64,000 nucleotides of DNA from the NCBI GenBank assembly GCA_016793115.1, contig JAEUIN010000382.1:11385-75384 (forward strand), given 5' to 3'. Each line of letters begins with the position of its first letter. The stretch's first letter is position 1. Made by a program: the position numbers and the translations under genes. Positions 1,806-34,656 of the stretch are shown piece by piece. This DNA comes from Planctomycetaceae bacterium (lineage in GTDB: Bacteria > Planctomycetota > Planctomycetia > Pirellulales > PNKZ01). A model generated the notes under the pieces. It worked only from the letters and a program-made list of their open reading frames with translations, was not told the DNA's origin and searched no databases.

Positions 1806-1809
1806 TTCG

Positions 1810-3907: not shown

Positions 3908-3989
3908 CGAGCCGCTTGATCCTCGCGAGGCTAGCCCCGCGCGACGTCGTCGCGATTGGGGCCGCGTCGCAAAAGGAACAAGCGGCTCG
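3908..3989 (-). terminator. compound stem-loop between rpmE and prfA (possible terminator/attenuator)
   Basis: Perfect 11-bp outer stem CGAGCCGCTTG (3908-3918) / CAAGCGGCTCG (3979-3989). It encloses the GCCCC...GGGGC and CGCGACG/CGTCGCG inner pairings. On the minus strand it is followed by a GTGTTTTCAC stretch. Confidence 0.4.
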
Positions 3990-4012
3990 AACGTGTGAAC
4001 TGACTCTCGCGG

Positions 4013-4273: not shown

Positions 4274-4729
4274 GATACTTCGACCTCCGCCGCGGTGAGC
4301 TTCGTCTGTGTTCGACGCCCCTACGGCCGGGCTAGTTCTGAGCGGCGCATGACAGGCTCCGCCGGCGGAACCTTCAGACGCGGCAGGGAAATAAGTGGGG
4401 AATTCCTGATCGTATCGGTATCGACTACTTGCGACAAGGGCGTGAGGATCGTTCGACGCTACCTGCATAACGTCTAGTTCTTGATTTCGTCTCATTTAAC
4501 AAACTGCGCCAAGGACCAACGGCGTTCCGCTAAGTCGTTCTTAGAAAGCGAGTTAGGCTTCACGAACAGCCCTTCACCCGTCCCAGCCCCGGAGCCGTAC
4601 CTTGCAACGCCTATCTCCCTACTGGATCTCATGTTGCAGCGATGTCGCCGCTGTTGACTTAGCGGCCCACGCAGTCGACGATTGCCCAACATGGCATTCC
4701 GTTGGAGACGTTTAGCTTCAAGGTGGAGC

Positions 4730-6049: not shown

Positions 6050-6228
6050 CGACGCCTCGGTTGAAAATCTGAATTTCGCTTGAGTTTTACGTTGCTCCAC
6101 ATCGTCAGCTGCATCGCCGTGCCGATTCTGTGGGGCGCCGCCGTGCATTGGTTGTTTCATCGCGGTCTCCGTCGCACGCCGGTAGACTCCGGACCCGCAC
6201 GATCCGGGCCGCAACGCGAGCCCGGTCC

Positions 6229-7113: not shown

Positions 7114-7369
7114 TCGGCTGACCGTCGCCAAGGCTAATTTCTTGTCAATAAAGAGAACCTGGGCTTTCCGGAGGAGAATTGTTTTGCGTCTCTCTAAGTT
7201 CCTCGGCTACTCCGTTGTGCCTATCGTGCACCGGACCGTGAGTTACTCGCCTGCGGTGTCGGGCGCGGAATTCGGCGATTGGAACACGAGTCGTGCCGCA
7301 GACTTGCCGGCTGTTAGCTCGTTTCGCTAGAATACCGGCTTACCCTCTTTTAGGAGTTCGCGATCCGGC

Positions 7370-7591
7370 ATGGCTGAAAAAGAAGAATCGATCGAAGTCG
7401 AAGGCGTCGTAACGCAGGCGCTCGCCAATACGCGCTTTCGGGTCAAGATCGAAGGCGGCCATGAACTCATCGCGCATGTCGCCGGAAGAATGCGGAAGAA
7501 TTTCATCCGCATCGTGCCCGGCGATAAGGTCAAGGTCGAACTCTCGCCGTACGATCTGACTAAAGGTCGGATCACGTTCCGCGAACGGTAA
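7370..7591 (+). CDS. infA: translation initiation factor IF-1
   Basis: 73-aa S1-like OB protein: [64 protein letters not shown]. Confidence 0.95.
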
Positions 7592-7860
7592 GTCGGCGCT
7601 TTCCGCGCACGCACTTCTCTCGTCTAGTTATGTTGCGCGCTCGGTACGGCGATATTAACGCCGCGCAATTTTCTCAAGCCGCTGTGGATGCCGCTGCGCG
7701 AATGGCGTACAACAACCGGCTGTTCCGCACTTCGGAACAAGTTCCCTACAGAGCCTAGTTCCCGTCCGAAGCCATCGACGGGTTTCCGAAACTTACGCGC
7801 CGGACGACGGGTACAACGTCGCGGGCCGGGCCGTTTACCCTTTGTGAAGGAGAGTCACTC

Positions 7861-9549: not shown

Positions 9550-9611
9550 ACTATCCCGGAACCGGGGAACCGCTCGAATCGAGGCTTCGGTTTCGGCAAA
9601 TGTGACGCAGC

Positions 9612-9654
9612 GCGAGGCCCTCGGCAACCAAACCGAGGGCCTCGCTGTTTTGTT
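9612..9654 (+). terminator. rho-independent terminator
   Basis: 13-bp stem GCGAGGCCCTCGG/CCGAGGGCCTCGC with an 8-nt loop, followed by TGTTTTGTT. Confidence 0.8.
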
Positions 9655-9731
9655 AGGACGGGCGGTGAGCCCCCCCTCACCGATTCCCGCCGTCCGTAGC
9701 CGGTCGGCGGTTGTGATAGAATCCAAGTGCC

Positions 9732-10928
9732 ATGCATAGCGAAGTCGCCGACAACTCCGATCGCCCCACCGGGCTCAGCGGCACGCAAGCCGTTTGGGCG
9801 ACGGCGACGATTTTCGCCGTCGCCGTCGGCGCGTGGATCGCTCGGTTCTACATGCTGCACGACTCCCCGGCTCCGCCGGCTCAAGAACCGCCGGCCGTCG
9901 TCGTCGCGCCCCCTCCGCAACTCTCGCCGATCGAGAAGGCCGCGCTGCGCGCCGAAGCTTGGGCGCTGATTGAACCTCGGCTCGACGAAGCCGACCGCGC
10001 TTCGCGGGCCGCGCTCGACGAACAACTCGCAGGCGTCGACGACTTCTTCCACGCGCGGCAAGCCGGAGTCCGACCGTTCGCCGAGGCGGTGTTGTCGCTA
10101 GGCGGCAAATGGGCGTATGCCAAAAGCACGCTGCCGACGGCCGAGGCCGACGCTCACGCGCGGTACCTCAACGAGAAATTCGAGACCTACCTCTTTCGCA
10201 TCGACGATTTGAAACAAACGCTTGAGCAAGCGATCGGCGGCTACGTCAGTCGCGTGCAAGGTTTCGAAGGCAAACTCCTCGTTGACGTGCGAGCCGATCT
10301 GAGCGACGAACAATTCGCGGCGGCCGGTTTGCCTAAGGCGCTCGTGAGCGACGAAGCGTTTCGCGCGGAGTTCGCGCGCTTACTTAAAGAGACCGCCGCG
10401 GCGACCGCGGCCGATTTCCGCGTCAGCATGTCGCGCGAGGTGACTTCGTTCGTCGCCGGCGAGGTGGCCGCCGTCGTCGCGGTCCGCATCGCTTCGGCCG
10501 TGGCGACTCGACTGGGGCTCTCGGCCGGAGTGCTCGGTACCGGCGCGGCTTCCAGTTGGGCCACATTCGGCTTGGGGCTTGCGGCGGCAGTAGTGGTCGA
10601 CGTCGCCATCTCCCAAATCATCAGCTTGGCCGGCTACGACCCGGTCGATGCCGTCACAGAAAAGGTGCAAGCGGCCTTGAATCAGATCCGCTCGTTGCTT
10701 GTCGACGGCAACCCCGAGGCGCTCGCGGCCTACGAAAAACTGCGGCGAATGCAAACCAACGACCCGGACGACAGTGTTCGCGCCGCCTGTCGTCGGGCGG
10801 CCGATTCGATTGAAGGAAGCGGCAACCTCGGACTGCGTCGCGAATTGCTCAGACTTCACGACGAGCGCGCCCGTTTGAGGCGAGCGACCTTGCGGCGGTT
10901 CGTGCTCGAACCTGCGGTCGGAGCGTAG
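9732..10928 (+). CDS. hypothetical membrane protein
   Basis: 398-aa ORF with an N-terminal TM (AVWATATIFAVAVGAWIARF) and central hydrophobic helices (VAAVVAVRIASAVA, ATFGLGLAAAVVVDVAISQII). No domain recognised. Confidence 0.55.
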   Translation: MHSEVADNSDRPTGLSGTQAVWATATIFAVAVGAWIARFYMLHDSPAPPAQEPPAVVVAPPPQLSPIEKAALRAEAWALIEPRLDEADRASRAALDEQLAGVDDFFHARQAGVRPFAEAVLSLGGKWAYAKSTLPTAEADAHARYLNEKFETYLFRIDDLKQTLEQAIGGYVSRVQGFEGKLLVDVRADLSDEQFAAAGLPKALVSDEAFRAEFARLLKETAAATAADFRVSMSREVTSFVAGEVAAVVAVRIASAVATRLGLSAGVLGTGAASSWATFGLGLAAAVVVDVAISQIISLAGYDPVDAVTEKVQAALNQIRSLLVDGNPEALAAYEKLRRMQTNDPDDSVRAACRRAADSIEGSGNLGLRRELLRLHDERARLRRATLRRFVLEPAVGA

Positions 10929-19448: not shown

Positions 19449-20861
19449 TCAGCCGTGCACCACCACGGTCTTCGTCTCCGTCATCTCTTCCACGGCGTAC
19501 TTCGGCCCCTCTTTGCCGAGGCCGGAATCTTTTAATCCACCGTACGGCATCAAGTCGGCGCGCCACGCGGTGCCCCAGTTGATGTGAATGTTGCCGCTTT
19601 CGACTTGGCGGGCGAACTTCAACGCGTGATCGATGTTTTGCGTAAACACTGCGGCGCTCAGTCCGTAGCGAGTGGAATTCGCCAGCGCGATCGCTTCGTC
19701 AATGGAGCCGACCCGCGTCACGGCGACCGCCGGACCGAACAGCTCCTCACAGCTTAACTTCATCTCCGGTTTCACGTCGGCCACGACCGCCGGCTCGACC
19801 ACCGCGCCTCGGCGGGTCCCGCCGCACAATACGCGTGCTCCGCCGGCCTTCGCTTCGTTGATCCACTCCTCAACGCGCACCGCATCGGCCTCGCGCACCA
19901 TCGGCCCCATCTGCGTTTGCGGGTCGAGTTGATCGCCGACGCGCAGCGCCTTAACTTTCGGCGTAAGCAAGTCCAACAGGTCGTCGTATTGCTTCCCAAG
20001 TGCGATCACGCGCTGGGTGGAAATGCAGACTTGGCCCGCGTTACCGTAGCCTGTCGCGACGGCCGCATCGGCAACTTTCTGCAAGTCCGCATCGGGCAGC
20101 ACGACCAGCGGGCTGTTCGAACCGAGTTCCATCGTCACGCGCTTGATGCCCGCGATCGAACAGAGGTGTTCGCCGACGTCGCGGCTCCCCGTAAAGCTCA
20201 CCTTGCGCACACGCGCGTCGCGCACGAGCGCCTCGCCGACCACCTTGCCGGGTCCGGTAATGCAAGCGATCCCTTCCGGAGGCAGGCCCGCTTCGAGCAA
20301 GATTTCGACCAAACGTAGGGCGGAGAGAGGCGTATCGCCGGCCGGCTTGACGATCACGGCATTGCCCGCCGCCAGCGCCGGCCCGACCTTATGCGTCACC
20401 AAGTTGAGCGGGAAGTTGAACGGCGTAATCGCCGCGACCACGCCGCAGGGCACGCGCAACGTGAAGCCGAACTTTCCCGCCCCGCCGGATGAGCCGTCGA
20501 GCGGCAGCACCTCCCCTTCGATGCGCTTCGCCTCTTCGGCCGACAACTCCATCGTTTCCTTCGCCCGCATGACTTCGCCTTTACCTTCGGCGAGCGTCTT
20601 CCCTTCTTCCTGACTGATCGTGCGACCGAGATCTGCGGCCCGCTCTTCCATAAGCTGCGCCGCCTTGAGCAGAATCTGGTAGCGCTTGTAGCCTGGCAAG
20701 GCGGCCATCACCTTCGCCCCGGCCGCGGCGCCCGCAAGCGCCCGCTCGACGTCGTCGGCCGTCGCCGAGGGAACCGTATCGACGACCGATTTGTCGTAAG
20801 GGTTGTGAACCTCGATCGACTTCACGGCGTCACTCCACTGCCCCGCCAAAAACATCCGCAT
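19449..20861 (-). CDS. NAD(P)+-dependent aldehyde dehydrogenase
   Basis: 470 aa with TMELGSNSP (ELGG-type) and GQVCISTQRV catalytic-Cys motifs. Confidence 0.9.
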   Translation of the reverse strand: MRMFLAGQWSDAVKSIEVHNPYDKSVVDTVPSATADDVERALAGAAAGAKVMAALPGYKRYQILLKAAQLMEERAADLGRTISQEEGKTLAEGKGEVMRAKETMELSAEEAKRIEGEVLPLDGSSGGAGKFGFTLRVPCGVVAAITPFNFPLNLVTHKVGPALAAGNAVIVKPAGDTPLSALRLVEILLEAGLPPEGIACITGPGKVVGEALVRDARVRKVSFTGSRDVGEHLCSIAGIKRVTMELGSNSPLVVLPDADLQKVADAAVATGYGNAGQVCISTQRVIALGKQYDDLLDLLTPKVKALRVGDQLDPQTQMGPMVREADAVRVEEWINEAKAGGARVLCGGTRRGAVVEPAVVADVKPEMKLSCEELFGPAVAVTRVGSIDEAIALANSTRYGLSAAVFTQNIDHALKFARQVESGNIHINWGTAWRADLMPYGGLKDSGLGKEGPKYAVEEMTETKTVVVHG

Positions 20862-20884: not shown

Positions 20885-21040
20885 GTGACGCCGCCCATTA
20901 TGCGGCGCACGGAAGGTGAATTACCAGCCCCGAGCGCGCGTAAGCGAATAAACGAAATCCGTCGCGGGATACGCCGGCGACGTCGAAGTCGCCTCGCTTG
21001 CGCTTGGGGCTGGTATTTCCGTTTGCGGCGTCGACAATAC
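20885..21040 (+). ncRNA. candidate cobalamin riboswitch-like leader (weak)
   Basis: GCCGC-CCATTAT-GCGGC hairpin, then GGAAGGTGAATTACCAGCC..GTAAGCG, then a B12-box-like GTCGCGGGATACGCCGGC. Lies immediately upstream of a BtuF-like binding protein. Eye match only. Confidence 0.25.
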
Positions 21041-21045
21041 TCCCC

Positions 21046-21927
21046 ATGCGTATCGCCTCTCTCATCAGCAGCGCCACCGAGATGCTCTTCGGCATCGGGC
21101 TCGACGACGAAATCGTCGCCGTGAGCCATGAGTGCGACCATCCGTCGCAAGCCGCGCTGCGCCCGAAAGCTTCCTTCACAAACATCGCCGCCGACGCGCC
21201 GAGCGCGCTGATCGATCGGCAAGTCAAGGAACTTGTCGCGGCCGGCAAGCCGCTCTACGAAGTCGATATCGACCTCTTAGCAGAACTGCGGCCTGACGTC
21301 ATCGTCACGCAGGCGCAATGCGACGTCTGCGCCGTGCGCTACGACGACGTCGCGACCGCCGTCGCCGGCGAACCGAGTTTAAGGCACACAAAGCTCATCG
21401 CCCTGAATCCGATGAGCCTAGGCGACATCCTGTCCGACATACGCCGCGTCGCCGCCGAAGTCGGCCGGGCCGAGGCCGGCGAACGCTACGCCGCAAGCCT
21501 TGCAGCCCGTATCGCCGCCGTCGCGAATCGAACCGCGACGCTCTCCGCCGCCGAGCGTCCACTCGTCGCCTGCATCGAATGGATCGACCCGCTGATGATC
21601 GCCGGCAATTGGAACCCGGAACTGATTCATTTGGCCGGCGGCCGGCAAATCTGGGCCGAGCCCGGCAAGCACAGCACCTATACCCCGTGGGACGACGTTC
21701 GCTCGGCCGACCCGGACGTGATCGTCGTCATGCCGTGCGGCTTCGACCAGATACGTACGGAGCGCGAAGCGGAGTCGTTGAAAGAACTTCCCGGCTGGCA
21801 AGATTTGAACGCTGTGCGAAGCGGTCGCGTTCACTGCGTCGACGGCAACGCTTTATTCAACCGCTCGGGGCCGCGTTTGGTGGATAGTCTCGAACTCTTG
21901 CACAAGCTCTTACAACCAGCGCTGTAG
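21046..21927 (+). CDS. cobalamin/siderophore-type periplasmic-binding-fold protein (BtuF-like), no signal peptide
   Basis: MRIASLISSATEMLFGIGLDDEIVAVSHECDHP ... PDVIVTQ ... NPELI ... PDVIVVMPCG, typical of class III substrate-binding proteins. Confidence 0.6.
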   Translation: MRIASLISSATEMLFGIGLDDEIVAVSHECDHPSQAALRPKASFTNIAADAPSALIDRQVKELVAAGKPLYEVDIDLLAELRPDVIVTQAQCDVCAVRYDDVATAVAGEPSLRHTKLIALNPMSLGDILSDIRRVAAEVGRAEAGERYAASLAARIAAVANRTATLSAAERPLVACIEWIDPLMIAGNWNPELIHLAGGRQIWAEPGKHSTYTPWDDVRSADPDVIVVMPCGFDQIRTEREAESLKELPGWQDLNAVRSGRVHCVDGNALFNRSGPRLVDSLELLHKLLQPAL

Positions 21928-22007: not shown

Positions 22008-23456
22008 TTAGCTCAATACCTCGCGCACCACGCGTCCATGTACGTCGGTCAAGCGGCGCTCGATGCCGTTGTGGTATACGCTCAGTCGCTGATGATCGAG
22101 CCCGACGAGATGCAAGATCGTCGCATGCAGATCGTAGATCGTGGTCACGTTCTCCACCGCGCGGTAGCCGAACTCGTCAGTCGCGCCGTAGCTGAAGCCG
22201 GGCTTCACCCCGGCCCCCGTCATCCAAGCCGTGAATCCCGAGGGATTATGGTCGCGGCCGTTGGCGCCTTTCTGAAACGTCGGCATCCGGCCGAACTCGG
22301 TCACCCACACGACGAGCGTGTCGTTCAACAAGCCGCGGCGTTTCAAGTCGGTAAGCAGCGCTGCACACGGCTGGTCGAGAATCTCGGCATGGCCGGGATA
22401 CTGATCGGCGATCTTTTTATGCCCATCCCAGTTGCCCACGCCTTCGCCCATTGCGTACGAACCGTTGAACAACTGCACAAACCGCACGCCGCGCTCAAGC
22501 AACCGGCGCGCGAGTAAACAATTGCGCGCGAAGCCGGCCTTGTTCGCGTTCCGGTCATCGAGCCCGTAGAGCGTCCGGGTCGCCGCCGATTCCTGGGAGA
22601 AATCCGCGACTTCAGCCGCTTCAAGTTGCATCCGCCCGGCGAGTTCATACGCGGCTATCCGTGCCGCCAGTTCGCTCTCCTGCGGTCGCGTCGCAAGATG
22701 CCGTTCGTTCAAAGCCTTGAGGAATCGGCGCGTCGCCAAATCGGCGTCGACCGAGAGTGCTTTCGGCCGAGTGAGATTCGCGATCGGTTTGTCGGCGTTG
22801 AACGCCGTGCCCTGAAACACCGCCGGCAGGAACGCCGAGTTCCAATGATTCGGCCCGACCTGCGGCACCCCGCGCGGATCCGGAATCGCCACAAACGCCG
22901 GCAGGTCGGCGCACTCCGTGCCGAGCGCATACGTCACCCATGCCCCCATGCCGGGAAAACCGTCGAGCGTGAACCCTGTCGACATCTGATTTTCCGCGGG
23001 CCCGTGCGTATTGCTCTTCGCCGTCATTCCGTGCCAAAAGCAAATATCGTCGGCATGCTCGCCGATCTTCGGCAGCAAGTCGCTCGTCAGCTTGCCCGAT
23101 TTCCCGCGCGGACGAAACTTCCAAATCGGGGCGACCAAATTGCCGTTCTCGCCTTGGAACGTCACTAGGTTGTCATTGCCCGGCATTGGTTTGCCGTCGT
23201 ATTTCACGAGCGCCGGCTTGTAGTCGAACGTGTCGACATGACTGATCGCGCCCGAACAGAAAATGACGAGCACCTGCTTCGCTTTGGGGGCGAAGTGCGG
23301 CGGCCGCGGCGCGAGCGGCGCTTCCGGCTTGACGACCGGACGAATCGGCGGCACCTTCGCGGCTCGCGACTCGTCGGCGAACAGCGACGCCAACGCGACG
23401 CCCGTCAGCCCGCTTGCGGCTTGGCCCAGGAACAGACGGCGGGACGGAGTTTCCAT
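22008..23456 (-). CDS. Tat-exported DUF1501 (sulfatase-fold) protein, module 1
   Basis: Twin-arginine leader [16 protein letters not shown] and typical blocks ([31 protein letters not shown]). Starts ~20 bp after the stop of the DUF1553 gene. Confidence 0.85.
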
Positions 23457-23476
23457 CGCGAACCTTAAAGCAAAGA

Positions 23477-26400
23477 TCAAAATACGTACAAAAACTCGTT
23501 GCTGTTCAGCAGCGCACGGCAGAGCGCCGACAAGCCATGCCGCTTAACAAGCGTCGCGGCTTCCTCAAACTCTTCGCGCTCCGGCGCGCGGCCGAGGGTA
23601 AGACGAAACGCTTGAGCGATTTGCGCGTCCGTCGCCTTGCCGGCCTCGCGCTCCACGCGCTCGGCCAATAGGCTTGCCTGCTGCATTAGGAACGGACTAT
23701 TCAGCAAGTTCAAAGCTTGTAGCGGCGTCGTCGAGCGCGACCGCTTCGGCGCCGTTTGGCCGGCGTCGGGACAATCGAACGCACCGAACACGTCGTCGAG
23801 TTGCATTCGCGGCTTCGCTTGGTAGATCATCCGCCGCCACGCATCGGGCCCGAACTCCTGCCGCGACTGGTAAACCTTCACGTAGTTGTCGTTGGGCTCA
23901 AAGAGATCGAAGCCCGGCCCGCCGCGACGCAAATCAAGATTGCCGGATACGAACAAGATCGCATCGCGCAGCGGTTCGGCTTCCAGCCGGCGCGGCGAGT
24001 AGCGCCAGAGATATTGATTGTCGGCGTCGATCGCCAAGGACGAAACTTGGAAATCGGAACGAGGAGTAGAATAAGCCGCCTTCCCGCTTCCCACCTCCGC
24101 CTTCTGTTTATATGTCTCGCTAGTAACGATCAGGCGATGCACATGCTTCAGGCTCCAAGCGTGATCGATCAATTCCGCGGCCAGCCAATCGAGCAACTCC
24201 GGGTGGGTCGTCCGTGCGCCGTTCAGTCCGAAGTCGCTCGGCGTGTCGACGAGGCCGCGGCCGAAATGATGCTGCCACAGCCGATTCACGATCACTCGCG
24301 CCGTCAGCGGATTCTTTGGATCGACGATCCAGCGCGCCAACGCCAAGCGACGTTCGTACTCCGGCGCGTCGGCCGCGACGGTCCACGTCGCGCCGAACTT
24401 CGCGAGCCCGCCGGGCGCGATCGGCTCGCGCGATTGCATCGGATCGCCGCGGTGAAAACGAAATGTCGGCTCGGGGTTCTCAAATCGACCGGCGTAGACC
24501 ATGGGCATCGCCTTCGCCTCGGCGAGGAGTCGCTGCAACTCACCGCGCCGCGCATTCAGAGCGGCGAGTTCCGCCTTGTCGGCCGCGGACAGATTCGGCC
24601 GTTCGCGCACGGTCGACTTCGGCTGCGCGACGCCGTACGGCAAGCGATCGTCGCCGCTTGCCACTCCCTTCCACACGCCGGGCGACGTCTGCACTTCGAT
24701 CACGTATTGCGACGGAATGCGATCGGTGTAGCGCCCGTCGGCCGCGCGATCGCGGCTCCACACCACGCGGTCGATCGTCATCGGTCGAGGAAAAAGGAGC
24801 GTCATCGCTCCTTCTCCCTTTTTGCTCGAGATCCAACTTCGCGAGTTACCGTACTGCCCGTCGTTCACATGCTCGAGCTTGTGTTTTTCGCTGCGCGGAT
24901 ACGATCCGGAGGCCTTGGCCGTCGTGCCGAAACTCGCCAGGGCCACGTTGCGCGGCTGCGCCTCGCTCGTAAAAACTTCCAACTCGTCTAAACATGGCTC
25001 CGATCCGTTGTTCACGGCGAGCACCGTGAATCGCAACGCGATCGTTTCGACCGGTGCAAACCGTTCTTCATTCGCGAACCGGCTCACGGCCGGACGCAAC
25101 AGCGATCCGAACTTCGCCAAGTCGCGCTCGACTTTCGTGAGCTCCTCGGCAAGTCGCTTCGCTTTTTGCTCTCGCTCGGCGGCGTCCCCGATTCGCCAAG
25201 CCCGCTCGCCGTGCTTCACTCCGGCGAACACGGCTTTCATCGCGTAGTAATCCGTCTGGCTGACCGGATCGAACTTATGGTTATGGCACCGCGCACAGCC
25301 CACGGTCAGCCCCATGAACGCGCTGCCGGCGGCGCTCACCATGTCGTGCAGCTCGTCGGCCCGCTGATTGGCCGTGAGCACCGGTTCTTTGCTTTTGACG
25401 ACGTCGACCGCGCCGGCGACGAGAAACCCGGTCGCGGCGTCGACTCCCAATTGATCGCCCGCTAGTTGCTCCATCACGAACCGATCGTACGGCTTGTCGT
25501 CGTTGAACGCTTGAATCACGTAGTCGCGGTAGGGCCAAGCGTTTGCGCGCGGCCGATTGGTTTCAAACCCGTTCGACTCGGCGAAGCGGACGACGTCGAG
25601 CCAGTGTCGCGCCCAGCGCTCGCCGAAGTGCGGTGAAGCGAGGTACTTTTCAACCAGCGCCGCGTAGTCGCTCGCGCGGGCATTCGCCGTTTCTTCCGGC
25701 GTCGGCGGCAGCCCGAGCAGATCGAACTTCAATCGGCGCACGAGCACCGCCGGTTCGGCTTCGGGCGATGGGCGCAGCCCCTTCTCCAAGAGCTTCGCGC
25801 GAATAAACGCGTCGATCGGGTTGATCGGCGACGCCGCAGTTTCCCGGCGAGCGGTCGGCGTCGGCCGGCCGGTGACGTCGCCGACATCCGGCACCGCGGG
25901 CCGCACGAGCGGCTGGAACGACCAATGGGCTCTCTGTTCCGCTTCGGCGACGCCGTCGAGCGGCACTTCCACGCCGGCCGGCCAAACGGCCCCTTGATCG
26001 ATCCAGGCTTTGAATAAGGCGATTTCGTCGCGCGAAAGCCGTTCCCCTTCGGGCGGCATCACGCCGTCGTCGTCGCCGCCGGCGATCAACCGTACGGCTA
26101 AGCTCTCGGCGCTCTTGCCGGGCACGATCGCCGGTCCCTGTGCCCCTCCTTTGAGCGCGTCGGCGCGGCGGTCCCAGCGCAATTCGCCGGCCTGCTCTTC
26201 CGGGCCATGACATGACACGCACCGCGACGACAACAGCGGTTGAATCTCGGCGACAAAGTCGATCTTGTGAGCGCCGGCCGGCTTCGCACCCGTCGTCTCG
26301 GCGGCGCCGACGTCGTGTTGCGAACCGATCAGCCAAGCGCCCAAGAGCAGCAGCGCTCTGACGGCACCGCGCGCTTTGCCGGACGCCGCCGACTTCGCCG

Positions 26401-27070
26401 CTTCTTCCGCCGCCGCGGCGCGCACTTCGATCGCGTGCCGCACGGCGACGGCGCTGCTCAAACGAATATGATGCGTCATGGCGGCGCGGGCCTTTGCGGC
26501 GTCACCGCCGCGCAAAGCTTCGATGATCGCACGGTGCTCGCCGAGCGCGTGCGTGAGCGCTCCGGCGCCGTCGTCGACGCGATTGCGCATGAGTTGCACA
26601 AGATCGTGAAAGCGGCGAATCTCGACGGCCAAGACCGGATTGCCCGAACGCAACGCGATCAGCCGATGCAACTCGCGATCAAGCTCCAAGCAAGCTTCTC
26701 GAAATTGCGGCGCGGCGGGCGCGGCGGCCGCGACGAGTTGATCGAGCCGCGCGAAATCGGCCGGCGTCATACGTTCGCACGCCAGCTCCGCAGCCAATCC
26801 TTCGAGCGCTTCGCGCAGTTGATAGATGTGGCGTAGTTCGTCGCCGCCGAGATCGCGGACGATCGCCCCACGATTCGGCAGCAGTTCGACGAGTCCGTCG
26901 CGACCCAAGCGTCCGAGGGCTTCGCGAATGGGCGTGCGACTCACGCCGAGCCGATCGGCCAATTCGATTTCCCGCAGCCGTGTCCCCGGTGCCAGACGTC
27001 CGGCCAGCAACTCCTCCAAAAGCTGCTGCACGACTCGATCAGCCAACGAAAAGGCTTCGAGCTTGATCAT
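23477..27070 (-). CDS. in-frame fusion ORF: GntR/FCD regulator + signal-anchor + PSCyt(CxxCH)/DUF1549/discoidin-like/DUF1553 protein, module 1
   Basis: w[29 protein letters not shown] plus an FCD domain (residues ~21-235 of the track ORF). This is followed by [56 protein letters not shown] and the C-terminal [11 protein letters not shown]. No stop codon between the two parts. Confidence 0.7.
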
Positions 27071-27113
27071 AGCGAGACTCGCAGGCGGGAGGCGAAGAGG
27101 GCGGCAAGTGGAT

Positions 27114-27130
27114 TTGCATACTGTATACAA
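27114..27130. promoter_or_regulatory. candidate GntR-type operator
   Basis: 17-bp near-palindrome TTGCATAC-T-GTATACAA (7 of 8 half-site positions symmetric) with a GT..AC core, 44-60 bp upstream of the ATG at 27070. Confidence 0.35.
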
Positions 27131-27201: not shown

Positions 27202-28014
27202 TCACTTGTCGAGCGCGGCGGTGTGCTTGTAGACGAAGTCGACGATCGGCTGCGGGTCTTTGAGGCTATGTGGGTGATGGCCGACGCCCGGCTTCACGAT
27301 AACCGTGATCGGCCCACCGAGCGCCTGGTAGCGCTCCTCGACGAGTTTCGTATTCTCCGCGAACGGCACGACGTCGTCGGCGTCGCCGCAGACGTGCAGC
27401 AGCGGGATCTTTGCCGCCGCGAGCGGAGCGAGATTATCGACCGGGTTAAGCTTGTACGCGAGCGCCTCGTCTTCGGTGAAGCCGTAGGCTTCGAGACAGC
27501 GTTGCCAATCTTTCGGCGAGCCTTTACCGCTGCCGCGCCCAAGTGGCCAACTCTTGAAATCGCAGACCGGTGCATCGTTGTAGATGCAGGCGACACGGTC
27601 CGGATGCCGCGCCGCCCAGTTCAAGGAAAAGAGCCCACCGCGCGAAAAACCTTCCAAAGCGACCTTCGGCATTAGGCCGTACTCGCGTGTGACGTGATCG
27701 TAAAACTTGTCCATCGCGTCGAGCGCCTTTGGCGCACCGTAAAGATTCGTCACGTCGACGTAGGCGATGTGAAAACCTTTCGCGGTCAGCGCAACGTCGG
27801 CCTGCGGCTCATGCCCGAAGAACTCGGTGCGCCAGATCCACGGCTTGCCGACGTCGGCCTTCGGCGGAACGATCAACAAGGCTTTACGACCGTCGACGAC
27901 GAAATCGAGCCGCTCCAACCCCTGCCATGTGGAGCGCGCGACCTCGTCGGCGCGGGCGCAACCGGTGAAAGTCCAAGCCGCAACCAGTAAGCCCCAAACC
28001 AGTATCGCACGCAT
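27202..28014 (-). CDS. secreted alpha/beta hydrolase (esterase/dienelactone-hydrolase-like)
   Basis: Signal peptide with lipobox-like FTGC, nucleophile elbow GFSRGG, VCGDADDVVP (Asp) and GVGHHPH (His). Confidence 0.65.
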   Translation of the reverse strand: MRAILVWGLLVAAWTFTGCARADEVARSTWQGLERLDFVVDGRKALLIVPPKADVGKPWIWRTEFFGHEPQADVALTAKGFHIAYVDVTNLYGAPKALDAMDKFYDHVTREYGLMPKVALEGFSRGGLFSLNWAARHPDRVACIYNDAPVCDFKSWPLGRGSGKGSPKDWQRCLEAYGFTEDEALAYKLNPVDNLAPLAAAKIPLLHVCGDADDVVPFAENTKLVEERYQALGGPITVIVKPGVGHHPHSLKDPQPIVDFVYKHTAALDK

Positions 28015-28106: not shown

Positions 28107-29588
28107 TTACGCGATGATCTGCCGAATCGGCTCGGCTCCTTCGACGCCGACGAGCTTTTGATCGAGCCCGTTGTAGAAGTACGCCAGCTTGTTCGGGTCG
28201 AGCCCCATCTGTTGCAGAATCGTAGCGTGCAAGTGCTTCACGTGGAAGCGATCGCTCACGGCCGCGCCGCCGAGTTCATCCGTCTCACCGACGCTCACGC
28301 CTCCCTTGATGCCGCCGCCGGCGAGCCACATCGTAAAGCCGTAGGCGTTGTGATCGCGGCCGGTCCCCTTGGCATATTCGGCCGTCGGCTGTCGGCCGAA
28401 CTCGCCACCCCAGACGACGATCGTTTCGTCGAGTAAGCCGCGCCGCGAGAGGTCTTCGAGCAGTCCGGCGATCGGCTTGTCGGTGTTGCCCGCGTGCTTG
28501 GTGTGGTTGGCGACGATGTCGGTATGAGCGTCCCAATTGTCGTCGTTGTGCGCGCCGCCGGAGTAGACCTGAATGAACCGCACGCCGCGCTCGACCATTC
28601 GCCGAGCCAGCAAGCACTTGCGGCCGAAATCCTCGGTCTTCTTGTCGTCGAGACCGTAGAGCTTGTGAGTTTCCGCAGTTTCGCCGGTCAAGTCGAACGC
28701 TTCGGGCGCGTGCTGCTGCATCTTGCAGGCGAGTTCATAGCTCGCGATGCGGGCCGCCAGTTCCGTATTGTCCGCGTGCTGCGCCTGATGCTCTTGGTTT
28801 TTCGCGCGGAGCCGATCGAGCATCCGCCGCTGCGCTGCGCGCGTCATACTTTCGGGAAGATCGAGATCGTGGATCGGCGTGCCGCTCGCGCGGACGACCG
28901 TCCCTTGAAACGCGGCGGGCATATAGCCGCTCGACCAATTCTTCGGCCCCGAGATCGGTCCGCCGGTCTTATCGAGCATCACGACGTAGCCCGGCAGGTT
29001 TTCGTTCTCGCTGCCGAGACCGTAGGTAATCCACGTGCCGAGGCTCGGGTGGCCGCTCAAAATGCGACCGGAGTTCATCATTAGCATCGCCGAGCCGTGG
29101 ATCGGTGATTCGGCGTACATCGAATGCAGAAACGCGAGCTTGTCCACGTGCTTGGCGACGTTGGGGAATAAGTCGCTAACGCGTTTGCCGCACTCGCCGT
29201 ATTGCTTGAAATCCCATTTCGGGCCGACGACGCGCCCTTCGTTGCGCTTGCCGCCGCGGCCGAACGTCTTGATCGGAATCGTTTTGCCGTCGAGCGGGTA
29301 GAGCTTCGGTTTGTAGTCGAACGTGTCGACGTGGCTCGGCCCGCCGTACATGAACAGAAAAATCACGCTCTTGGCTTTGGCCGGCAACATCGGCGGCTTC
29401 GGCGCCATCGGGTTGACGAACGCCGCCGCGCCCGGCTTGGCGTGCACCGCAGCATCGGCCGCGCTGGCGGGGGAGGCGAAGAAGCCGTCGCGCGCGAGCA
29501 AGCCGGTCAGCGCCGCCGCGCCGAACCCGCCGCCGGTCTGCCACAAAAACTCACGCCGCGTGCGTCGACAAAATTGATTCGCGCTCAT
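28107..29588 (-). CDS. Tat-exported DUF1501 protein, module 2
   Basis: Leader CRRTRREFLWQTGGGFGAAAL and blocks [32 protein letters not shown]. Confidence 0.85.
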   Translation of the reverse strand: MSANQFCRRTRREFLWQTGGGFGAAALTGLLARDGFFASPASAADAAVHAKPGAAAFVNPMAPKPPMLPAKAKSVIFLFMYGGPSHVDTFDYKPKLYPLDGKTIPIKTFGRGGKRNEGRVVGPKWDFKQYGECGKRVSDLFPNVAKHVDKLAFLHSMYAESPIHGSAMLMMNSGRILSGHPSLGTWITYGLGSENENLPGYVVMLDKTGGPISGPKNWSSGYMPAAFQGTVVRASGTPIHDLDLPESMTRAAQRRMLDRLRAKNQEHQAQHADNTELAARIASYELACKMQQHAPEAFDLTGETAETHKLYGLDDKKTEDFGRKCLLARRMVERGVRFIQVYSGGAHNDDNWDAHTDIVANHTKHAGNTDKPIAGLLEDLSRRGLLDETIVVWGGEFGRQPTAEYAKGTGRDHNAYGFTMWLAGGGIKGGVSVGETDELGGAAVSDRFHVKHLHATILQQMGLDPNKLAYFYNGLDQKLVGVEGAEPIRQIIA

Positions 29589-29608
29589 GCTTTCGCTCCG
29601 GACTTGTT

Positions 29609-29765
29609 TTCACCGCGGAGAAACGAGAACCACAGATGGACGCAGATCATCACAGATGAATTCCAACAGGGAAAATCGAGCGGTTGAGAGTCTCAAACTC
29701 GCCGTCCCAGATTTTGATTTGCGTTCATCCGCGTTGCGATCCCCCTCCGCGCTCTCCGTGGTGAA
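29609..29765. repeat. imperfect long inverted repeat in the module-2 intercistronic spacer
   Basis: Left arm TTCACCGCGGAGA...GATGGACGCAGATCA. The reverse complement of the right arm is TTCACCACGGAGA...GATGAACGCAAATCA. Small central hairpin GTTGAGA/TCTCAA. Confidence 0.6.
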
Positions 29766-29781
29766 CTTCGCCTCTAAAAAC

Positions 29782-32700
29782 TCAATCCAAGTAGAACAAC
29801 TCGTTCGTGTTCAGCGCCATTAAGCAATAGAGCTCCAATGCTTCGGCATAGCTGAGCTGGTCTTCTTTTTGGGTCGCTTCCAGAAACTTCACATCGGCCG
29901 CGAGTTCGGCGCTCGTCGGCGTTCGCTGAGTCGTGAGCTCCGTCGCGCGGCGAACCTGGGCCGGGCGATCGCCGGGATGCTCTTTCTCGAGTCGCACGGC
30001 CAAGGCCGCGGCTTGCTCGTGGATGAACTCGCCGTTGAGCATCCCGAGCGCTTGCGTCGGCACGGTCGTCGTGTAGCGCGCGGCACAACTGGAGTCGGTA
30101 TCGGCCTGATCGAATACGGCCATAATCGGTAATTGCAGCGACCGCTTCACATGCACATAGAGGCTGCGGCGATTCGCGTCGGGGCCCTTCGACGTCGGCC
30201 AACCGAGCCCCGGTCGCGATTGCCCTGCCAACACCTCTTGCGGAATCGGCGGATAGACGCTCGGCCCGCCGAGTCGCAAGTCGAGCGAGCCGGTCGCGGC
30301 CAGGATCGAATCGCGCACTTCTTCGGCCGCTAGGCGACGCATGTCGAACCGCCACCGCAGATGATTGCCGGGGTCTCGGGCGAGGCCCGCCTCGGTCGCC
30401 GTGCTCGACAACCGATACGTGCTCGACGTCATCAAGAGCCGATGCATGCGTTTCAGCCGCCACTCGCCGCGCACCAAGTCCGCCGCCAGCCAATCAAGCA
30501 GTTCGGGGTGCGTCGGCATTTCGCCGAGCTTGCCGAAATCGTTCGCCGAGCCGACGAGTCCGCGGCCGAAGTGATATTGCCAGAGCCGATTCGCCAGCAC
30601 GCGGGCCGTGGCCGGGTTGTCGGCGGCGACGAGCCAGTCGACGAGCGCGACGCGCGCACTGGGGGCCGGCGTCCCCTTCGCATCGCCGGGGGCGCTCAGC
30701 GGCAGTTGATAGCCCGCCGGTACGAGCACGTCGGGCACGCCGGCCGTGACGAGATCGCCTTCGGCCTGCGGCAGTCCGCGCAGCAGCACATGCGTCGGCG
30801 GCGGCGTGCGCGTTTCCACGGCCATGATGTCGGTGCCGGGCGGCGGCAGCGGCGCGGCTCGGCTTTCCGTCAGCTTCGTGAGCACATCGAGATAGCGTTC
30901 GCTTTCGGCCTTGCCGAGCACCGTCGTGCCATGTTGGCGGATCACGTCGTCAAGCGTTTGCGTGGCGTCGGTCGGACGGACGTCGACGAACTGGCCGCCG
31001 CCGGTTTGCCTGCAATGCACGGCGATGACGTTCGTACCGACGTGAAGCGCACTCGTCGCTTCCGGTCCCAGCCCAATCCGACGGTACTCGCGCAGGTGTC
31101 CCTGTTCGGCGAAGACGCGCTTACCATTTAAGAAGATTTCGACGTCTTCGTCGTGATGCAAATCGAAAGTGAAACGCTTCGGCACCGCCTTGAGTTCCAG
31201 CGGCCGCCGGAGATAGATGTCCTTCGTCTTCCAGACGGTGCCGACTTTGGCGCCCGGCGTGCCGCGTACGCCGAACCCGCCGCGGCCGCGCTCCCAGCGG
31301 GAATCGTCGAACTTCTCCTGCTGCCAACCTTTGCCGGGCGGCTTCGTCGTATAGGCCCACTCGATATCCTTCTCGCCGGGAGATTTCGTGGCCGGGTCGG
31401 CCGAGAGCGGGCGCAACCGGAAATCGGGACCGCTCCAGACCAGGCTCAGCTTCGGCTGCTGCGTCGCGTTGAAATACTCCAGGCGAAACGACAAAAAACC
31501 GGCCGGCAGCTCGATGGAATTGGTCACTTCGTGGAAGCCGTTATCGGGGGCGTCGAGCACGGTACGGCCGTCGACGAGGAGCCGCAATCCGGCCCGCGCC
31601 ACGCCGTCGAACTTATAGCTCCCCGCGCGCGGCACTTTCAGCTTCCCTTCAAACACCAAGCCGATCGCCTCCATCCGCGAAGCGACGCCCAGCGACACCA
31701 GCGGCGGGCCGGTCACCGCCCCTTCTTCCTCGATCTTGAGCGCGCGGAAGTTCGGGAGCGTCTTCCAGGTGTCGCGATAGAGCTTGTAGCGGAGCTCGGC
31801 TAAGTCGTCCCCCTGCACGCCGTCGGTCACGACGCCGTGCGCCGAGGCTTCATTCAAAAACTTTCGCTGCATCGCATACAGTTCGCCGTACCAGCCTGCT
31901 TCGCGAGCCTCTTTTTCCGCGGCGAGCTTGCGATGGGCGGCTTGCTCGGCTTCCGTGGCGAACCGCCGCAAGTTCTGGCTGTTCATATCGGTGATGTCGC
32001 GGAAGCAGGCGAGGAGCTTGTAGTAATCGCGCTGCGCAATCGGATCTTTCTTGTGGTCGTGGCAACGTGCGCAGCCGACGCTCATGCCGAGCACGACGCT
32101 CGACGTGGTCGAGACGACCCCGTCGAGCACTTCGTAGCGCGCCAAGTCGCGATCGGCCGGTTCGTCGTCCCAGGTGCCGAGTCGATAGTAGCCGGTGGCC
32201 GCGAGCGTCTCGGGCGTGATCTGCGGCAGTTGGTCGCCGGCGAGTTGCTCACGCAAGAACCGATCGTACGGCTTGTCTTGGTTGAACGAAGAGACGACAT
32301 AATCGCGATAGCGCCAGGCGGCCGGCTTCGCGCTATCGCGCTCGTAGCCGTGCGTTTCGGCGTAGCGAACCAAGTCGAGCCAATGCCGGCCCCATTTCTC
32401 GCCGTAGTGCGGCGAAGCGAGCAAGCGATCGATCAAGGCGACGTAGGCCTTCTCCGCCGCGGCTTTCTCCGCAGCCGACGCCGCAAGCTCAAAGCCGCGG
32501 CCGACCTCGCGCTCGAAAGCGGCGACCTCTTCCGGCGACGGCGGCAGCCCGGTCAGGTCGTACGTCGCACGACGAATGAGCGAGCGCGGCGTAGCGAACG
32601 TCGTCGGCGCGATGCCGGCCGCTTCGAGCTTATTCAAGATGAAGGCATCGACGGGCGTGCGCACCCAGGCCGAGTCGTTCGCCGCCGGCACGGCGGGCTC

Positions 32701-33285
32701 GACGATCGGTTGATAAGCCCAATACTTGCGATCTTCTTCGGTCACGCCGGCCGGCTTCCGCTCGACGACGTGCGCCGGTTCCTTTTCCATTTCGGGAGGC
32801 CAAGGCAGACCGTCGCGCACCCAGCGCTCGAGCACGGCGATCTCCGCGGCCGGCAGCTTACCGCTCGGCGGCATCTCCAACTCTTCATAACGTACGGCCG
32901 TGAGGAGTTGGCTCGCCATGGGATCGTCGAGCGCGACGGCCGGCCCAAGCTCGCCGCCGCGGAGCACCGCCGCGCGCGACGTGATGTAGAACTCGCTCGC
33001 TACCTTGTCTTCGCCGCCGTGACACTTCACGCAGCGGCCGACCAAGATCGGCTGCACTTTCTCGACGAAGAACTTCCGTTGCTCGGCTGTGATCGACGGA
33101 CGTTGGGCATGCGCTGCGTCGGCCGGCTTTGCCGCAGGCACCTCTGCGGCAAGGAGCGCACCGGTCTTCGCGAAGCAAGCGACGACGAACGCAATGACGT
33201 ACAGCGCGGCGGCCGGCAACACGGAGGCAGGGCGCCGGACGCAGCGGTACGACTGCCAAACAGAATCAAAAGACACGGTGAACAT
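29782..33285 (-). CDS. PSCyt(CxxCH)/DUF1549/PA14-like + jelly-roll insert/DUF1553 protein, module 2
   Basis: Signal anchor, CVKCH, SPHYGEKWGRHWLDLVRYAE, GCARCHDHKKDP and the C-terminal MALNTNELFYLD. ATG at 33285; the track start at 33303 is TTG. Confidence 0.85.
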   Translation of the reverse strand: MFTVSFDSVWQSYRCVRRPASVLPAAALYVIAFVVACFAKTGALLAAEVPAAKPADAAHAQRPSITAEQRKFFVEKVQPILVGRCVKCHGGEDKVASEFYITSRAAVLRGGELGPAVALDDPMASQLLTAVRYEELEMPPSGKLPAAEIAVLERWVRDGLPWPPEMEKEPAHVVERKPAGVTEEDRKYWAYQPIVEPAVPAANDSAWVRTPVDAFILNKLEAAGIAPTTFATPRSLIRRATYDLTGLPPSPEEVAAFEREVGRGFELAASAAEKAAAEKAYVALIDRLLASPHYGEKWGRHWLDLVRYAETHGYERDSAKPAAWRYRDYVVSSFNQDKPYDRFLREQLAGDQLPQITPETLAATGYYRLGTWDDEPADRDLARYEVLDGVVSTTSSVVLGMSVGCARCHDHKKDPIAQRDYYKLLACFRDITDMNSQNLRRFATEAEQAAHRKLAAEKEAREAGWYGELYAMQRKFLNEASAHGVVTDGVQGDDLAELRYKLYRDTWKTLPNFRALKIEEEGAVTGPPLVSLGVASRMEAIGLVFEGKLKVPRAGSYKFDGVARAGLRLLVDGRTVLDAPDNGFHEVTNSIELPAGFLSFRLEYFNATQQPKLSLVWSGPDFRLRPLSADPATKSPGEKDIEWAYTTKPPGKGWQQEKFDDSRWERGRGGFGVRGTPGAKVGTVWKTKDIYLRRPLELKAVPKRFTFDLHHDEDVEIFLNGKRVFAEQGHLREYRRIGLGPEATSALHVGTNVIAVHCRQTGGGQFVDVRPTDATQTLDDVIRQHGTTVLGKAESERYLDVLTKLTESRAAPLPPPGTDIMAVETRTPPPTHVLLRGLPQAEGDLVTAGVPDVLVPAGYQLPLSAPGDAKGTPAPSARVALVDWLVAADNPATARVLANRLWQYHFGRGLVGSANDFGKLGEMPTHPELLDWLAADLVRGEWRLKRMHRLLMTSSTYRLSSTATEAGLARDPGNHLRWRFDMRRLAAEEVRDSILAATGSLDLRLGGPSVYPPIPQEVLAGQSRPGLGWPTSKGPDANRRSLYVHVKRSLQLPIMAVFDQADTDSSCAARYTTTVPTQALGMLNGEFIHEQAAALAVRLEKEHPGDRPAQVRRATELTTQRTPTSAELAADVKFLEATQKEDQLSYAEALELYCLMALNTNELFYLD

Positions 33286-33396
33286 ATCCTTCACCTTACG
33301 CAAACGGCGGGCGTGGGCGAGCGAGGCGGGAGCAAAGCTGCGGAAAACCGGCGAGCGGAACCGAACTCGAAGCTCGTCGAGTTATTTTCTAAAGGT

Positions 33397-33462: not shown

Positions 33463-34656
33463 ATGAATTCTCCCGCCCCGTCCCGCGTCGTTCCGGCTCT
33501 CCTGCGACAGCTCAACGAACGAAGCGTGCTCTCCGCGCTGCAAAGCCGAGGGCCGTCGTCGCGGGCCGAGATTTGCCGCCACACCGGGATTAGCGGGCCC
33601 ACGGTGACGCGCGTCGTCGCCGCGCTGATCGACGCCAAGCTCGTCGAAGAAGAGGAACCCTTGCAGCGCGCGGTCGGTCGTCCCGGGAAGATCGTCCGAC
33701 TGGCCCGCTCGGGGGTCTGCGTGCTGGGGCTGGTCGTCGGTCCCGATCATTGCGACGCGGTGGCCGCAAGTCTCGACGGCCAATTCGATGAGGCCGCCGA
33801 TGTTCGCACATTCGCCACGCCCGCGAAATATGACGACTTGGTGGCCGCGTGCGTCCGCGAGTTGCGGGCTTTGATGGGCCGGCGCAAGGGCACGGTGCTC
33901 GGCGTCGGCATTAGCGTTCCCGGATTGCTCAATCGGCGCGAAGGGCGAAGCATCGTCTCCCCCAACCTGCACCAACTCGACGGCCGCAACCTCGGGCAAG
34001 ACCTCGAAGACCGGTTACAGATCGATTGCATCGTGCTGCAAGAATGCCAAGCCTTGTGCTGGGCCGAGCAGGTGTACGGCGAAGCGCGCGACACCGCCGA
34101 CTTCGCCATGCTCGACATCAGCGCCGGCCTCGGGCTGGGCGTGATGCAAGGAGGCCGCATCGTGCAAGGCCACAGCGGCTTGGCCGGCGAGTTGGGACAC
34201 GTCACCGTGGAACTCGACGGCAAGCCGTGCGGCTGCGGCAACCGCGGCTGCTTGGAAACCGTGGCGACCGATACCGCGCTGGCTGCGGCCGTCGGTGAAC
34301 GACTCGGCCGCATCATCACCATCGACGAGTTGCTCGCCGACGTCCAAGCCGGACGAATCGATTGCCGCGAGGAACTCGATCGGACGCTCGATTATCTGGC
34401 CGTCGGCGTCGCCGCGGTGATCAACATCTTCAACCCGAGCAAGCTCTTCATCTACGGGCGACTGTTCGACGCCGAACTACCGCAATCCGGCTTGCAAGCT
34501 CAGCCGGGAAACGTCTTTGAGCGACTGCTGGCGCGAGTCGAACGCCGAGCGCTCGCCCCCTGCTTCGCCGACTGTAAAGTGGTGCGGGCCCGGGGCAGCA
34601 AACGGCTCGGCGTCGTCGCCGCCGCCGGCCACGGCGCCACGCACGGACGAAGCTAA
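33463..34656 (+). CDS. ROK family transcriptional regulator (NagC/XylR-like)
   Basis: N-terminal wHTH (LNERSVLSALQSRGPSSRAEICRHTGISGPTVTRVVAALI) and the ROK zinc motif GHVTVELDGKPCGCGNRGCLE. An alternative ATG at 33424 overlaps the putative -10. Confidence 0.8.
   Translation: MNSPAPSRVVPALLRQLNERSVLSALQSRGPSSRAEICRHTGISGPTVTRVVAALIDAKLVEEEEPLQRAVGRPGKIVRLARSGVCVLGLVVGPDHCDAVAASLDGQFDEAADVRTFATPAKYDDLVAACVRELRALMGRRKGTVLGVGISVPGLLNRREGRSIVSPNLHQLDGRNLGQDLEDRLQIDCIVLQECQALCWAEQVYGEARDTADFAMLDISAGLGLGVMQGGRIVQGHSGLAGELGHVTVELDGKPCGCGNRGCLETVATDTALAAAVGERLGRIITIDELLADVQAGRIDCREELDRTLDYLAVGVAAVINIFNPSKLFIYGRLFDAELPQSGLQAQPGNVFERLLARVERRALAPCFADCKVVRARGSKRLGVVAAAGHGATHGRS

Follow-up and report, generated by a model that had tools for sequence, protein, structure and literature searches.

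The window, a 64-kb stretch of planctomycete DNA, carries on its reverse strand a single open reading frame (ORF) in which a GntR/FCD-type transcription factor is joined to a PSCyt1-PSCyt2-PSD1 protein (PSCyt2 and PSD1 are also known as DUF1549 and DUF1553), and we conclude that this is a real, evolutionarily maintained gene fusion and not a sequencing error. The frame is uninterrupted over 23477..27130 (-), and translation from the ATG at 27070 to the stop codon at 23477 gives 1197 amino acids with no internal stops. In an alignment, this ATG is the start in line with the MIKLE or MLKLE start of all orthologues, and the parts follow one another in the order GntR winged helix, FCD domain, basic linker, short hydrophobic segment, PSCyt1 (with a CxxCH heme motif), DUF1549, and DUF1553 (Table 1). 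A preliminary description, made from the letters of the DNA, had noted that the transcription factor reads through in one frame into the DUF1553 protein, and both the open ORF and the Pfam domains bear this out. As expected for the PSCyt1-PSCyt2-PSD1 family, the body has the three Pfam domains in order, the CxxCH motif, and an adjacent DUF1501 gene, which begins 20 nt 3′ of the stop codon of the fused gene; a DUF1501 gene also follows the fused gene in every fused locus. The export signal that these proteins usually have at the very N-terminus is missing there, and the signal-like segment is internal (residues 232-256), preceded by a 231-residue predicted cytoplasmic head that is the point of difference from other DUF1553 proteins.

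Two loci assembled independently from other samples (L018 and L019) are 99.8-99.9% identical to the window and show no indels; within the fused gene there are three to four differences, all synonymous, and the encoded protein is identical. A search of 5.8 billion proteins identified six further fused clusters (P0002-P0007) of the same architecture, five of which share 66-68% identity with the window protein at 100% coverage. The source of P0007 is a nanopore metagenome-assembled genome (MAG; locus L003, GCA_049840675.1) with frameshift-broken genes: its positions 276-9078 hold a Polysacc_synt gene, a PAS/GAF histidine kinase gene, the GntR and FCD parts in pieces, and a DUF1553 gene truncated at its 3′ end. 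These broken genes look like uncorrected indel errors, and P0007 should not be taken as a natural variant lacking GntR. The FCD-to-PSCyt junction is open there too, as it is in all seven fused clusters, and none of the seven contains a split variant.

Both halves of the protein are conserved. Within the fused clade, dN/dS values (Nei-Gojobori) are 0.03-0.16 for GntR, 0.05-0.33 for FCD, 0.05-0.22 for PSCyt1, and 0.08-0.21 for the remaining body, and residues C284, C287, and H288 of the CxxCH motif are invariant among the fused orthologues; these patterns argue strongly that both halves are functional and under purifying selection. The linker and hydrophobic segment evolve much faster, with dN/dS of 0.25-1.15. 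The linker has nearly no sequence conservation between fused proteins and has changed length at least three times, from 49 residues in the shortest to about 66 in the longest, yet the changes keep the frame and it is always open. No compensated frameshifts were found in this fast-evolving linker, where the differences are substitutions only, and its GC content at third codon positions is coding-like, although the stretch is too short for this to be decisive. Because dS exceeds 1 between the window and the other fused members, the fusion must be old.

These observations bear directly on whether the ORF could stem from faulty sequencing or assembly, or from a recent read-through that inactivates the gene and is turning it into a pseudogene. 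The many frameshift-broken genes of the nanopore MAG, GntR and FCD among them, could be taken to favour such an error, but the same junction in three independent assemblies refutes an artefact, and the open junction in seven of seven clusters, that MAG included, together with the strong purifying selection on head and body, leaves a chance close to negligible that the ORF is artefactual or decaying. The preliminary description had offered a lost or missequenced stop codon as one way to read the locus. As an artefact this fails, since the fusion is repeated in independent assemblies and kept at 66-68% identity, whereas as history it appears correct, in that the more distant relatives are split and a stop codon would truly have been lost, once, in the ancestor of the clade. 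Orthologous loci with a consistent stop codon between the two parts had been proposed as grounds for rejecting the fusion, and here the answer is mixed: every one of the nearest orthologues is fused, and every more distant one is split.

The closest stand-alone GntR/FCD proteins are 52-61% identical to the head and come from five distinct loci (L007, L009, L010, L015, and L017). In all five, a separate PSCyt1-PSCyt2-PSD1 gene follows the GntR/FCD gene with a stop codon between them, and the spacer from the GntR stop to the DUF1553 gene ranges from 27 to 103 nt in three of them (L007, L009, and L010), shrinks to 0 nt in L015, and widens to about 670 nt in L017. The L007 contig, like that of L008, ends inside the DUF1553 gene and so places the PSD1 end and the position of DUF1501 off record; a DUF1501 gene follows in the other four split loci. 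The split DUF1553 genes open with an ordinary signal peptide, for example MIRTRLALGLLASAAWMMPAAADA|ADAVDF, which is as far from the CxxCH motif as is the internal hydrophobic segment in the fused chains. The window body is 42-50% identical to the split downstream DUF1553 genes, compared with 36-40% to its two paralogues within the window (29782-33303 and 52266-55604, both on the reverse strand), which, as the preliminary description had recognized, are PSCyt1/PSCyt2/PSD1 proteins with N-terminal signal-peptide-like segments. Head and body are thus each closest to the split operons, and the two together are co-orthologous with such an operon; by this comparison, the ancestral unit was an operon of gntR(FCD), pscyt1-duf1549-duf1553, and duf1501. 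The split operons resemble the fused locus in gene order, in the palindrome described below, and in the distance from signal peptide to CxxCH, and differ in having a stop codon and a spacer of 0-103 nt (about 670 nt in L017) where the fused locus has one frame. In L015 (GCA_018242585.1, 5640-5780), the DUF1553 gene begins, in the same frame, with an ATG that directly abuts the GntR stop codon TAG, and the GntR tail is already rich in lysine and arginine (...PKRAARKVSA*M...), so that this locus is, as its sequence reads, one point mutation away from the fused architecture.

In an exhaustive HMMER search of 1.84 billion representative proteins, the only long proteins among the best 150 relatives of the head belong to the fused clade, and it is on this search that we judge the absence of other fusions. 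A word-indexed search with the 262-residue head (26285-27070) listed only stand-alone GntR/FCD proteins and lacked the fused P0001-P0006, which are the nearest relatives of the head at 68% identity in the HMMER search; such a search seems to lose long proteins early, and the lack of long matches in it is no evidence against fusions. A scan of genome contigs recovered two fused genomes and one unrelated PSCyt contig (L006) that is not fused. The titles of the fused contigs name Pirellulales and Planctomycetota MAGs, and the simplest account of the fusion is that a stop codon was lost once, in one narrow, Pirellulales-like clade.

The head retains the features expected of a working regulator. 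It belongs to the GntR family by its PF00392 match and to the FadR/FCD subfamily by its all-helical FCD domain (PF07729), and its relatives in the PDB are all GntR/FCD regulators. An AlphaFold2 model of residues 1-320 has residues 10-230 as a winged helix-turn-helix (HTH) and a helical bundle with a predicted local distance difference test score (pLDDT) of about 90 or more; the GntR part, with pLDDT above 90, has the helix-helix-helix-strand-strand layout. The 46 fused and split relatives all keep residues D131, H135, H179, and H201, whose spacing (D-x3-H, then 44 and 22 residues) equals that of the known metal site in FCD regulators such as Ps5454 and DgoR, with the histidines set as in the Ps5454 metal triad H148/H192/H214. 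The head therefore appears to keep its own effector pocket complete and its DNA-binding features intact.

Upstream of the fused gene lies a putative operator (Table 1) whose core, TGTATACA, starts 59 nt before the ATG and occurs once in the 64-kb window, where 0.04 occurrences are expected. Each of the 12 loci examined has this core ahead of its GntR gene, at a distance of 34-62 nt from the start in 11 of them and 272 nt in L017. The six fused loci also share the exact 13-mer TTGTATACAGTAT, which lies 52-62 nt upstream of the ATG between flanks that have diverged. Regulators of the FadR/FCD subfamily bind as dimers to a palindrome at the promoter that they control and are released by an effector; the conserved palindrome may be such an operator and, at the level of sequence, suggests that the head is still an autoregulator of its operon. 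A scan for sigma-70 promoters and terminators found no promoter-like site, although the sigma-70 model is uninformative for planctomycetes. A related sequence, CTGTATACAGTAT, stands at 7679-7691 of a Paludisphaera rhizosphaerae locus (L016), 53 nt upstream of one of two GntR/FCD genes that are 46% identical to the head; these genes lie, within a set spanning 5001-9794, beside N_methyl/SBP_bac_10 genes (prepilin-type, DUF1559-like) with no DUF1553 genes there, and this operator type thus seems to be common to the GntR subfamily across different target genes.

A characterized parallel is DgoR, a GntR/FadR-subfamily repressor of D-galactonate catabolism in Escherichia coli whose metal pocket and operator IR1 (TTGTAgTACAA) have been described (PMC11705089, PMC7674646). 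Like the head, DgoR has a winged HTH and an FCD domain with a divalent-metal pocket (D-x3-H plus His), in which D146/H150 have the same D-x3-H arrangement as D131/H135 of the window protein; its promoter carries an inverted repeat with the half-sites TTGTA/TACAA, which are also those of the window dyad, and its gene, like that of the window regulator, comes first in the operon that it represses. DgoR is soluble, however, and its half-sites are one base apart where those of the window abut; it regulates a sugar-acid pathway, whereas the fused regulator would control DUF1553/DUF1501 genes. The sequence similarity of the head to the DgoR structure (7c7e) is weak (E = 6e-11) and confined to the FCD domain.

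The segment that joins head and body has the character of a signal peptide. The last FCD helix (residues 191-231, 26378-26500) is modelled as one continuous helix of about 40 residues that runs to the basic stretch with pLDDT of about 89-95, after which pLDDT drops to 58 over ten residues; a rigid helical stalk, and not a floppy linker, may thus form the tether. The preliminary description had given 26321-26356 for a basic stretch plus hydrophobic helix; these positions cover only the core A239-S250, and the full basic and hydrophobic string, K232-S250, occupies 26321-26377. In seven of seven fused proteins, the stretch of 15 residues just ahead of the hydrophobic segment is positively charged, with +3 to +6 charges (+4/-0 in the window), and the 15 residues after it are neutral or acidic. 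The uncharged stretch is 14 residues in the window and 14-28 in the fused clade, compared with 11-24 in the split signal peptides, and the basic n-region, the h-region with its hydrophobic core of 11-15 residues, against 7-15 in Sec signal peptides at large, and the small residues at -3 and -1 follow the layout of a Sec signal peptide, as in the split homologues. Small residues occupy -3 and -1 after the core in seven of seven fused proteins (VGA|AE in the window), yet such sites are expected by chance in Ala-rich sequence and are suggestive only, and we do not count them as evidence of cleavage. Judged by these likenesses, the hydrophobic "anchor" descends from the Sec signal peptide of the ancestral DUF1553 protein, whose h-region it keeps without lengthening, and the former signal peptide would now act as an internal signal or anchor sequence. 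Maturation of c-type cytochromes is such that a CxxCH domain requires the periplasmic heme-attachment machinery; from this need and from the charge asymmetry, we infer an N-in, C-out topology. Whether signal peptidase I cleaves after the retained signal peptide we regard as a roughly even matter.

Starting from the fusion, its conservation and split ancestry, the conserved operator, and the intact ligand- and DNA-binding features, we consider it probable, if far from certain, that the protein is a membrane-tethered autorepressor controlled by an FCD ligand, fused to the exported product of its own operon through loss of a stop codon, and possibly separated from it by signal peptidase. The GntR/FCD part would be a DgoR-like repressor acting on the TGTATACA-core palindrome before its own gene and released by a small cytoplasmic effector at the FCD metal site. 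Loss of the stop codon and spacer would have placed this repressor in one chain with the Sec signal peptide and the DUF1553 body. The 235-residue head would be translated first and remain cytoplasmic, the basic stretch and short hydrophobic segment would serve as an internal signal or anchor sequence, and the CxxCH/DUF1553 body would be exported to the periplasm, receive c-type heme, and act with DUF1501 as in the split relatives. The head would then sit at the inner face of the membrane and would still autoregulate the operon, probably for the most part by acting in cis at the neighbouring operator. Cleavage by signal peptidase I would leave the head with the signal peptide as a C-terminal tail anchor, and in its absence the two halves would stay joined; in either case the head would be attached to the membrane unless a second protease frees it. 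We further propose that the signal is sensed by the FCD pocket and not by the DUF1553 body.

Several points weigh against this interpretation. Fourteen uncharged residues are short for a stable transmembrane helix (the clade range is 14-28), residues 236-267 have no confident AlphaFold2 model, and the interpretation presumes that a GntR dimer could bind DNA while tethered. The clade is narrow and represented by metagenome assemblies alone, and an internal start at V210 or V216 of the window protein, or at M230 of P0004, may be used. GntR regulators are also rare among computationally listed transmembrane regulators, with 150 entries (0.3%) in the available part of a recent survey (PMC10269533).

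Alternatives differ from the tethered autorepressor in where the body comes from, in what becomes of the head, and in which part senses the signal. The body could mainly be translated alone from a start within the linker, with the read-through chain as a minor by-product, as the preliminary description envisaged for the in-frame GTGs at 26443 and 26425. Both codons are present (V210 and V216), 23-29 codons ahead of the core, the window also has a TTG at L204, and P0004 has an ATG (M230) just before the core. However, the in-frame ATG, GTG, or TTG codons that lie after the FCD domain and ahead of the hydrophobic core occur at different positions from one fused protein to the next, P0005 (L012) has none upstream of the core and a sole TTG within it, and no Shine-Dalgarno-like motif precedes the candidate internal starts. 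Planctomycetes are thought to use Shine-Dalgarno sequences little, and the lack of one here therefore counts for little. As there is no stop codon in frame, every ribosome that starts at ATG 27070 is forced through to the full chain, and in-frame indels upstream of the core would not need preserving if the body were made separately. Internal initiation may thus operate in some members, but it is not a route to the body that the clade conserves, and we regard it as decidedly improbable that it is the main one.

Another possibility is that the chain resolves itself, signal peptidase I cutting after the signal peptide and a signal-peptide or intramembrane protease then freeing the head, so that the repressor would end up soluble and the DUF1553 protein free in the periplasm, as with a split operon, and the fusion would be functionally almost neutral. 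This would be the simplest way to tolerate loss of the stop codon at once, abutting genes of the L015 type being one mutation away, and the full n-, h-, and c-region layout is retained without lengthening in the seven fused proteins, each with its small residues at -3 and -1. Internal signal sequences are open to cutting by signal peptidase, and one regulator naturally processed in this way is RsiV of Bacillus subtilis: a type II membrane anti-sigma factor with a cytoplasmic N-terminal regulatory part, whose release starts with signal peptidase cleavage triggered by lysozyme binding. The type II regulator layout would be alike in RsiV and the fused protein, although cleavage here is only a candidate event suggested by the retained signal-peptide features. 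Release of the head, moreover, would need a second, unsupported cleavage, the small-residue sites are those that chance would supply, and a neutral fusion might have reverted or shown split variants, of which the seven clusters have none; full self-resolution is, in our view, rather unlikely. The body could instead be the sensor, with the periplasmic PSCyt/DUF1553 part perceiving a substrate, a redox state, or DUF1501 and signalling to the GntR head in the manner of ToxR or CadC. A cytoplasmic DNA-binding domain, a single hydrophobic segment, and a large periplasmic part are the architecture of a transmembrane regulator, and the fusion has been kept over a long divergence (dS > 1). Yet the body is an ordinary full-size DUF1553 member with a DUF1501 partner, under the same constraint as in the split relatives, where covalent signalling is impossible, the head has an effector pocket of its own, and the linker and hydrophobic segment are almost neutral in sequence, unlike a signal-transmitting element. 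ToxR/CadC-like signalling is therefore quite improbable. The preliminary description had proposed a membrane-tethered one-component regulator that would link DUF1553 to signal perception; the single reading frame is confirmed and the architecture of one chain with a cytoplasmic head and a periplasmic body is supported, whereas sensing by the DUF1553 body is not, given that in the split relatives GntR/FCD simply heads the operon and has a pocket and an operator of its own, and that the anchor is apparently a former signal peptide. A broader variant, in which the state of the DUF1553/heme body governs the head through the tether or through RsiV-like cleavage and release, coupling repression to export or occupancy, we consider unlikely.

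Transmembrane transcription regulators such as ToxR, TcpP, and CadC, which reach DNA from the membrane, are established and widespread according to the available part of a survey by Demey et al. (2023, PMC10269533). The fused protein resembles them in its N-terminal cytoplasmic DNA-binding domain, single membrane segment, and periplasmic C-terminal part (a predicted arrangement here), and its domain order and charge asymmetry fit this layout, with a hydrophobic segment that is only of signal-peptide length. The ToxR family, however, combines an OmpR-type winged HTH with a dedicated periplasmic sensor, whereas the fused protein has a GntR-type winged HTH and its own cytoplasmic FCD sensor; its periplasmic part is a full-size DUF1553 protein, and its membrane segment would be a relic of a signal peptide. 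As the OmpR/PhoB-type winged helix is absent, the fused protein is not a ToxR-family member whatever its topology. The available tables of the same survey list no PSCyt or PSD1 partner of a transmembrane regulator, and a literature search on membrane-bound GntR regulators returned nothing specific.

Table 1. Positions in the window of the fused gene, its parts, the putative operator, and the partner gene
Feature	Position	Strand	Remarks
Putative operator, 17-bp imperfect dyad TTGTATACaGTATGCAA	27114..27130	.	Perfect core palindrome TGTATACA at 27122-27129
Fused ORF, 1197 aa, GntR-FCD head, linker, signal-peptide-like segment, and PSCyt1-DUF1549-DUF1553 body	23477..27070	-	
GntR winged helix-turn-helix, residues 9-71	26858..27046	-	Pfam PF00392, 63.3 bits (cut-off 27)
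FCD effector-binding/dimerisation domain, residues 82-203	26462..26827	-	Pfam PF07729, 95.9 bits (cut-off 24.3)
Linker, residues 204-238: tail of last FCD helix, then basic stretch (K226, K232, R234, R238)	26357..26461	-	
Hydrophobic segment A239-H252	26315..26356	-	Length and CxxCH distance as in signal peptides of split homologues
c-region-like stretch D253-E258, candidate signal peptidase I site VGA|AE (A256/A257)	26297..26314	-	
PSCyt1 cytochrome-c-like domain, residues 284-342	26045..26221	-	Pfam PF07635, 61 bits
CVSCH heme motif within PSCyt1	26207-26221	-	
PSCyt2/DUF1549, residues 418-619	25214..25819	-	Pfam PF07583, 253 bits
PSD1/DUF1553, residues 907-1174	23549..24352	-	Pfam PF07587, 294 bits
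DUF1501 partner gene, 482 aa, twin-arginine-type leader	22008..23456	-	Pfam PF07394, 484 bits

There are three DUF1553-DUF1501 pairs in the window (22008-27130, 28107-33303, and 50531-55604, all on the reverse strand), and each has a different adjacent regulator: the fused GntR/FCD head, a divergent ROK-family repressor (ROK plus a MarR-type HTH) at 33463-34656 (+), and a divergent extracytoplasmic function (ECF) sigma factor at 55684-56346 (+). Each pair may therefore have an induction of its own, and sugars or sugar acids are what two of the three regulator types typically sense. Beyond the DUF1501 gene of the fused locus lie a gene for a Peripla_BP_2 binding protein, 20998-21927 (+), and one for an aldehyde dehydrogenase, 19449-20861 (-), a neighbourhood that is kept in L018 and L019 and is not conserved in the other fused loci. 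Four of these (L001, L002, L003, and L012) share upstream synteny (about 1900-5900) of a glycosyltransferase, a Polysacc_synt gene, and a large PAS/GAF histidine kinase that ends about 120-140 nt before the fused gene. The window is without this glycosyltransferase/kinase synteny and instead has an S9/alpha-beta hydrolase gene (27202-28014) and the second DUF1501-DUF1553 pair.

The DUF1501/PSCyt/PSD1 module is abundant and conserved in the Planctomycetes-Verrucomicrobia-Chlamydiae (PVC) superphylum, and the available text of two studies describes its function as not established (Kamneva et al. 2012, PMC3542564; He et al. 2017, PMC5615132). As in the window with its three pairs, it consists there of a signal-peptide-bearing PSCyt1-PSCyt2-PSD1 protein and a twin-arginine translocation (Tat)-type DUF1501 protein in several copies per genome; passages retrieved from the two papers with the terms PSCyt, PSD1, and DUF1501 mention no dedicated GntR/FCD regulator, operator, or regulator fusion. 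Within the literature searched and as far as shown, the GntR/FCD head and its palindrome would thus be the first dedicated regulator and operator for a subset of this module of Planctomycetes and Verrucomicrobia. Set against the narrow clade and a basis in sequence comparison, the series of split, abutting, and fused loci and the handle offered by a regulator and its operator give the finding what we judge to be moderate weight. If the body did govern the head, DUF1553 would be a sensory module and the protein a new class of GntR-type transmembrane regulator. The regulator is of the metal-dependent FCD type, whose usual ligands are sugar acids or other carboxylates, and the identity of its effector would point to the substrate or product of the DUF1553/DUF1501 module, a question open since 2004-2012. 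More generally, the locus appears to capture the birth of a membrane-tethered transcription factor through loss of the stop codon between a repressor gene and the gene for a secreted protein, with the stages still to be seen as loci that are split with a spacer, abutting in frame, and fused, and with a signal peptide apparently reused as an anchor. It offers a test case for whether a dimeric GntR/FCD repressor can act from the membrane, and for whether signal peptidase resolves natural fusions.

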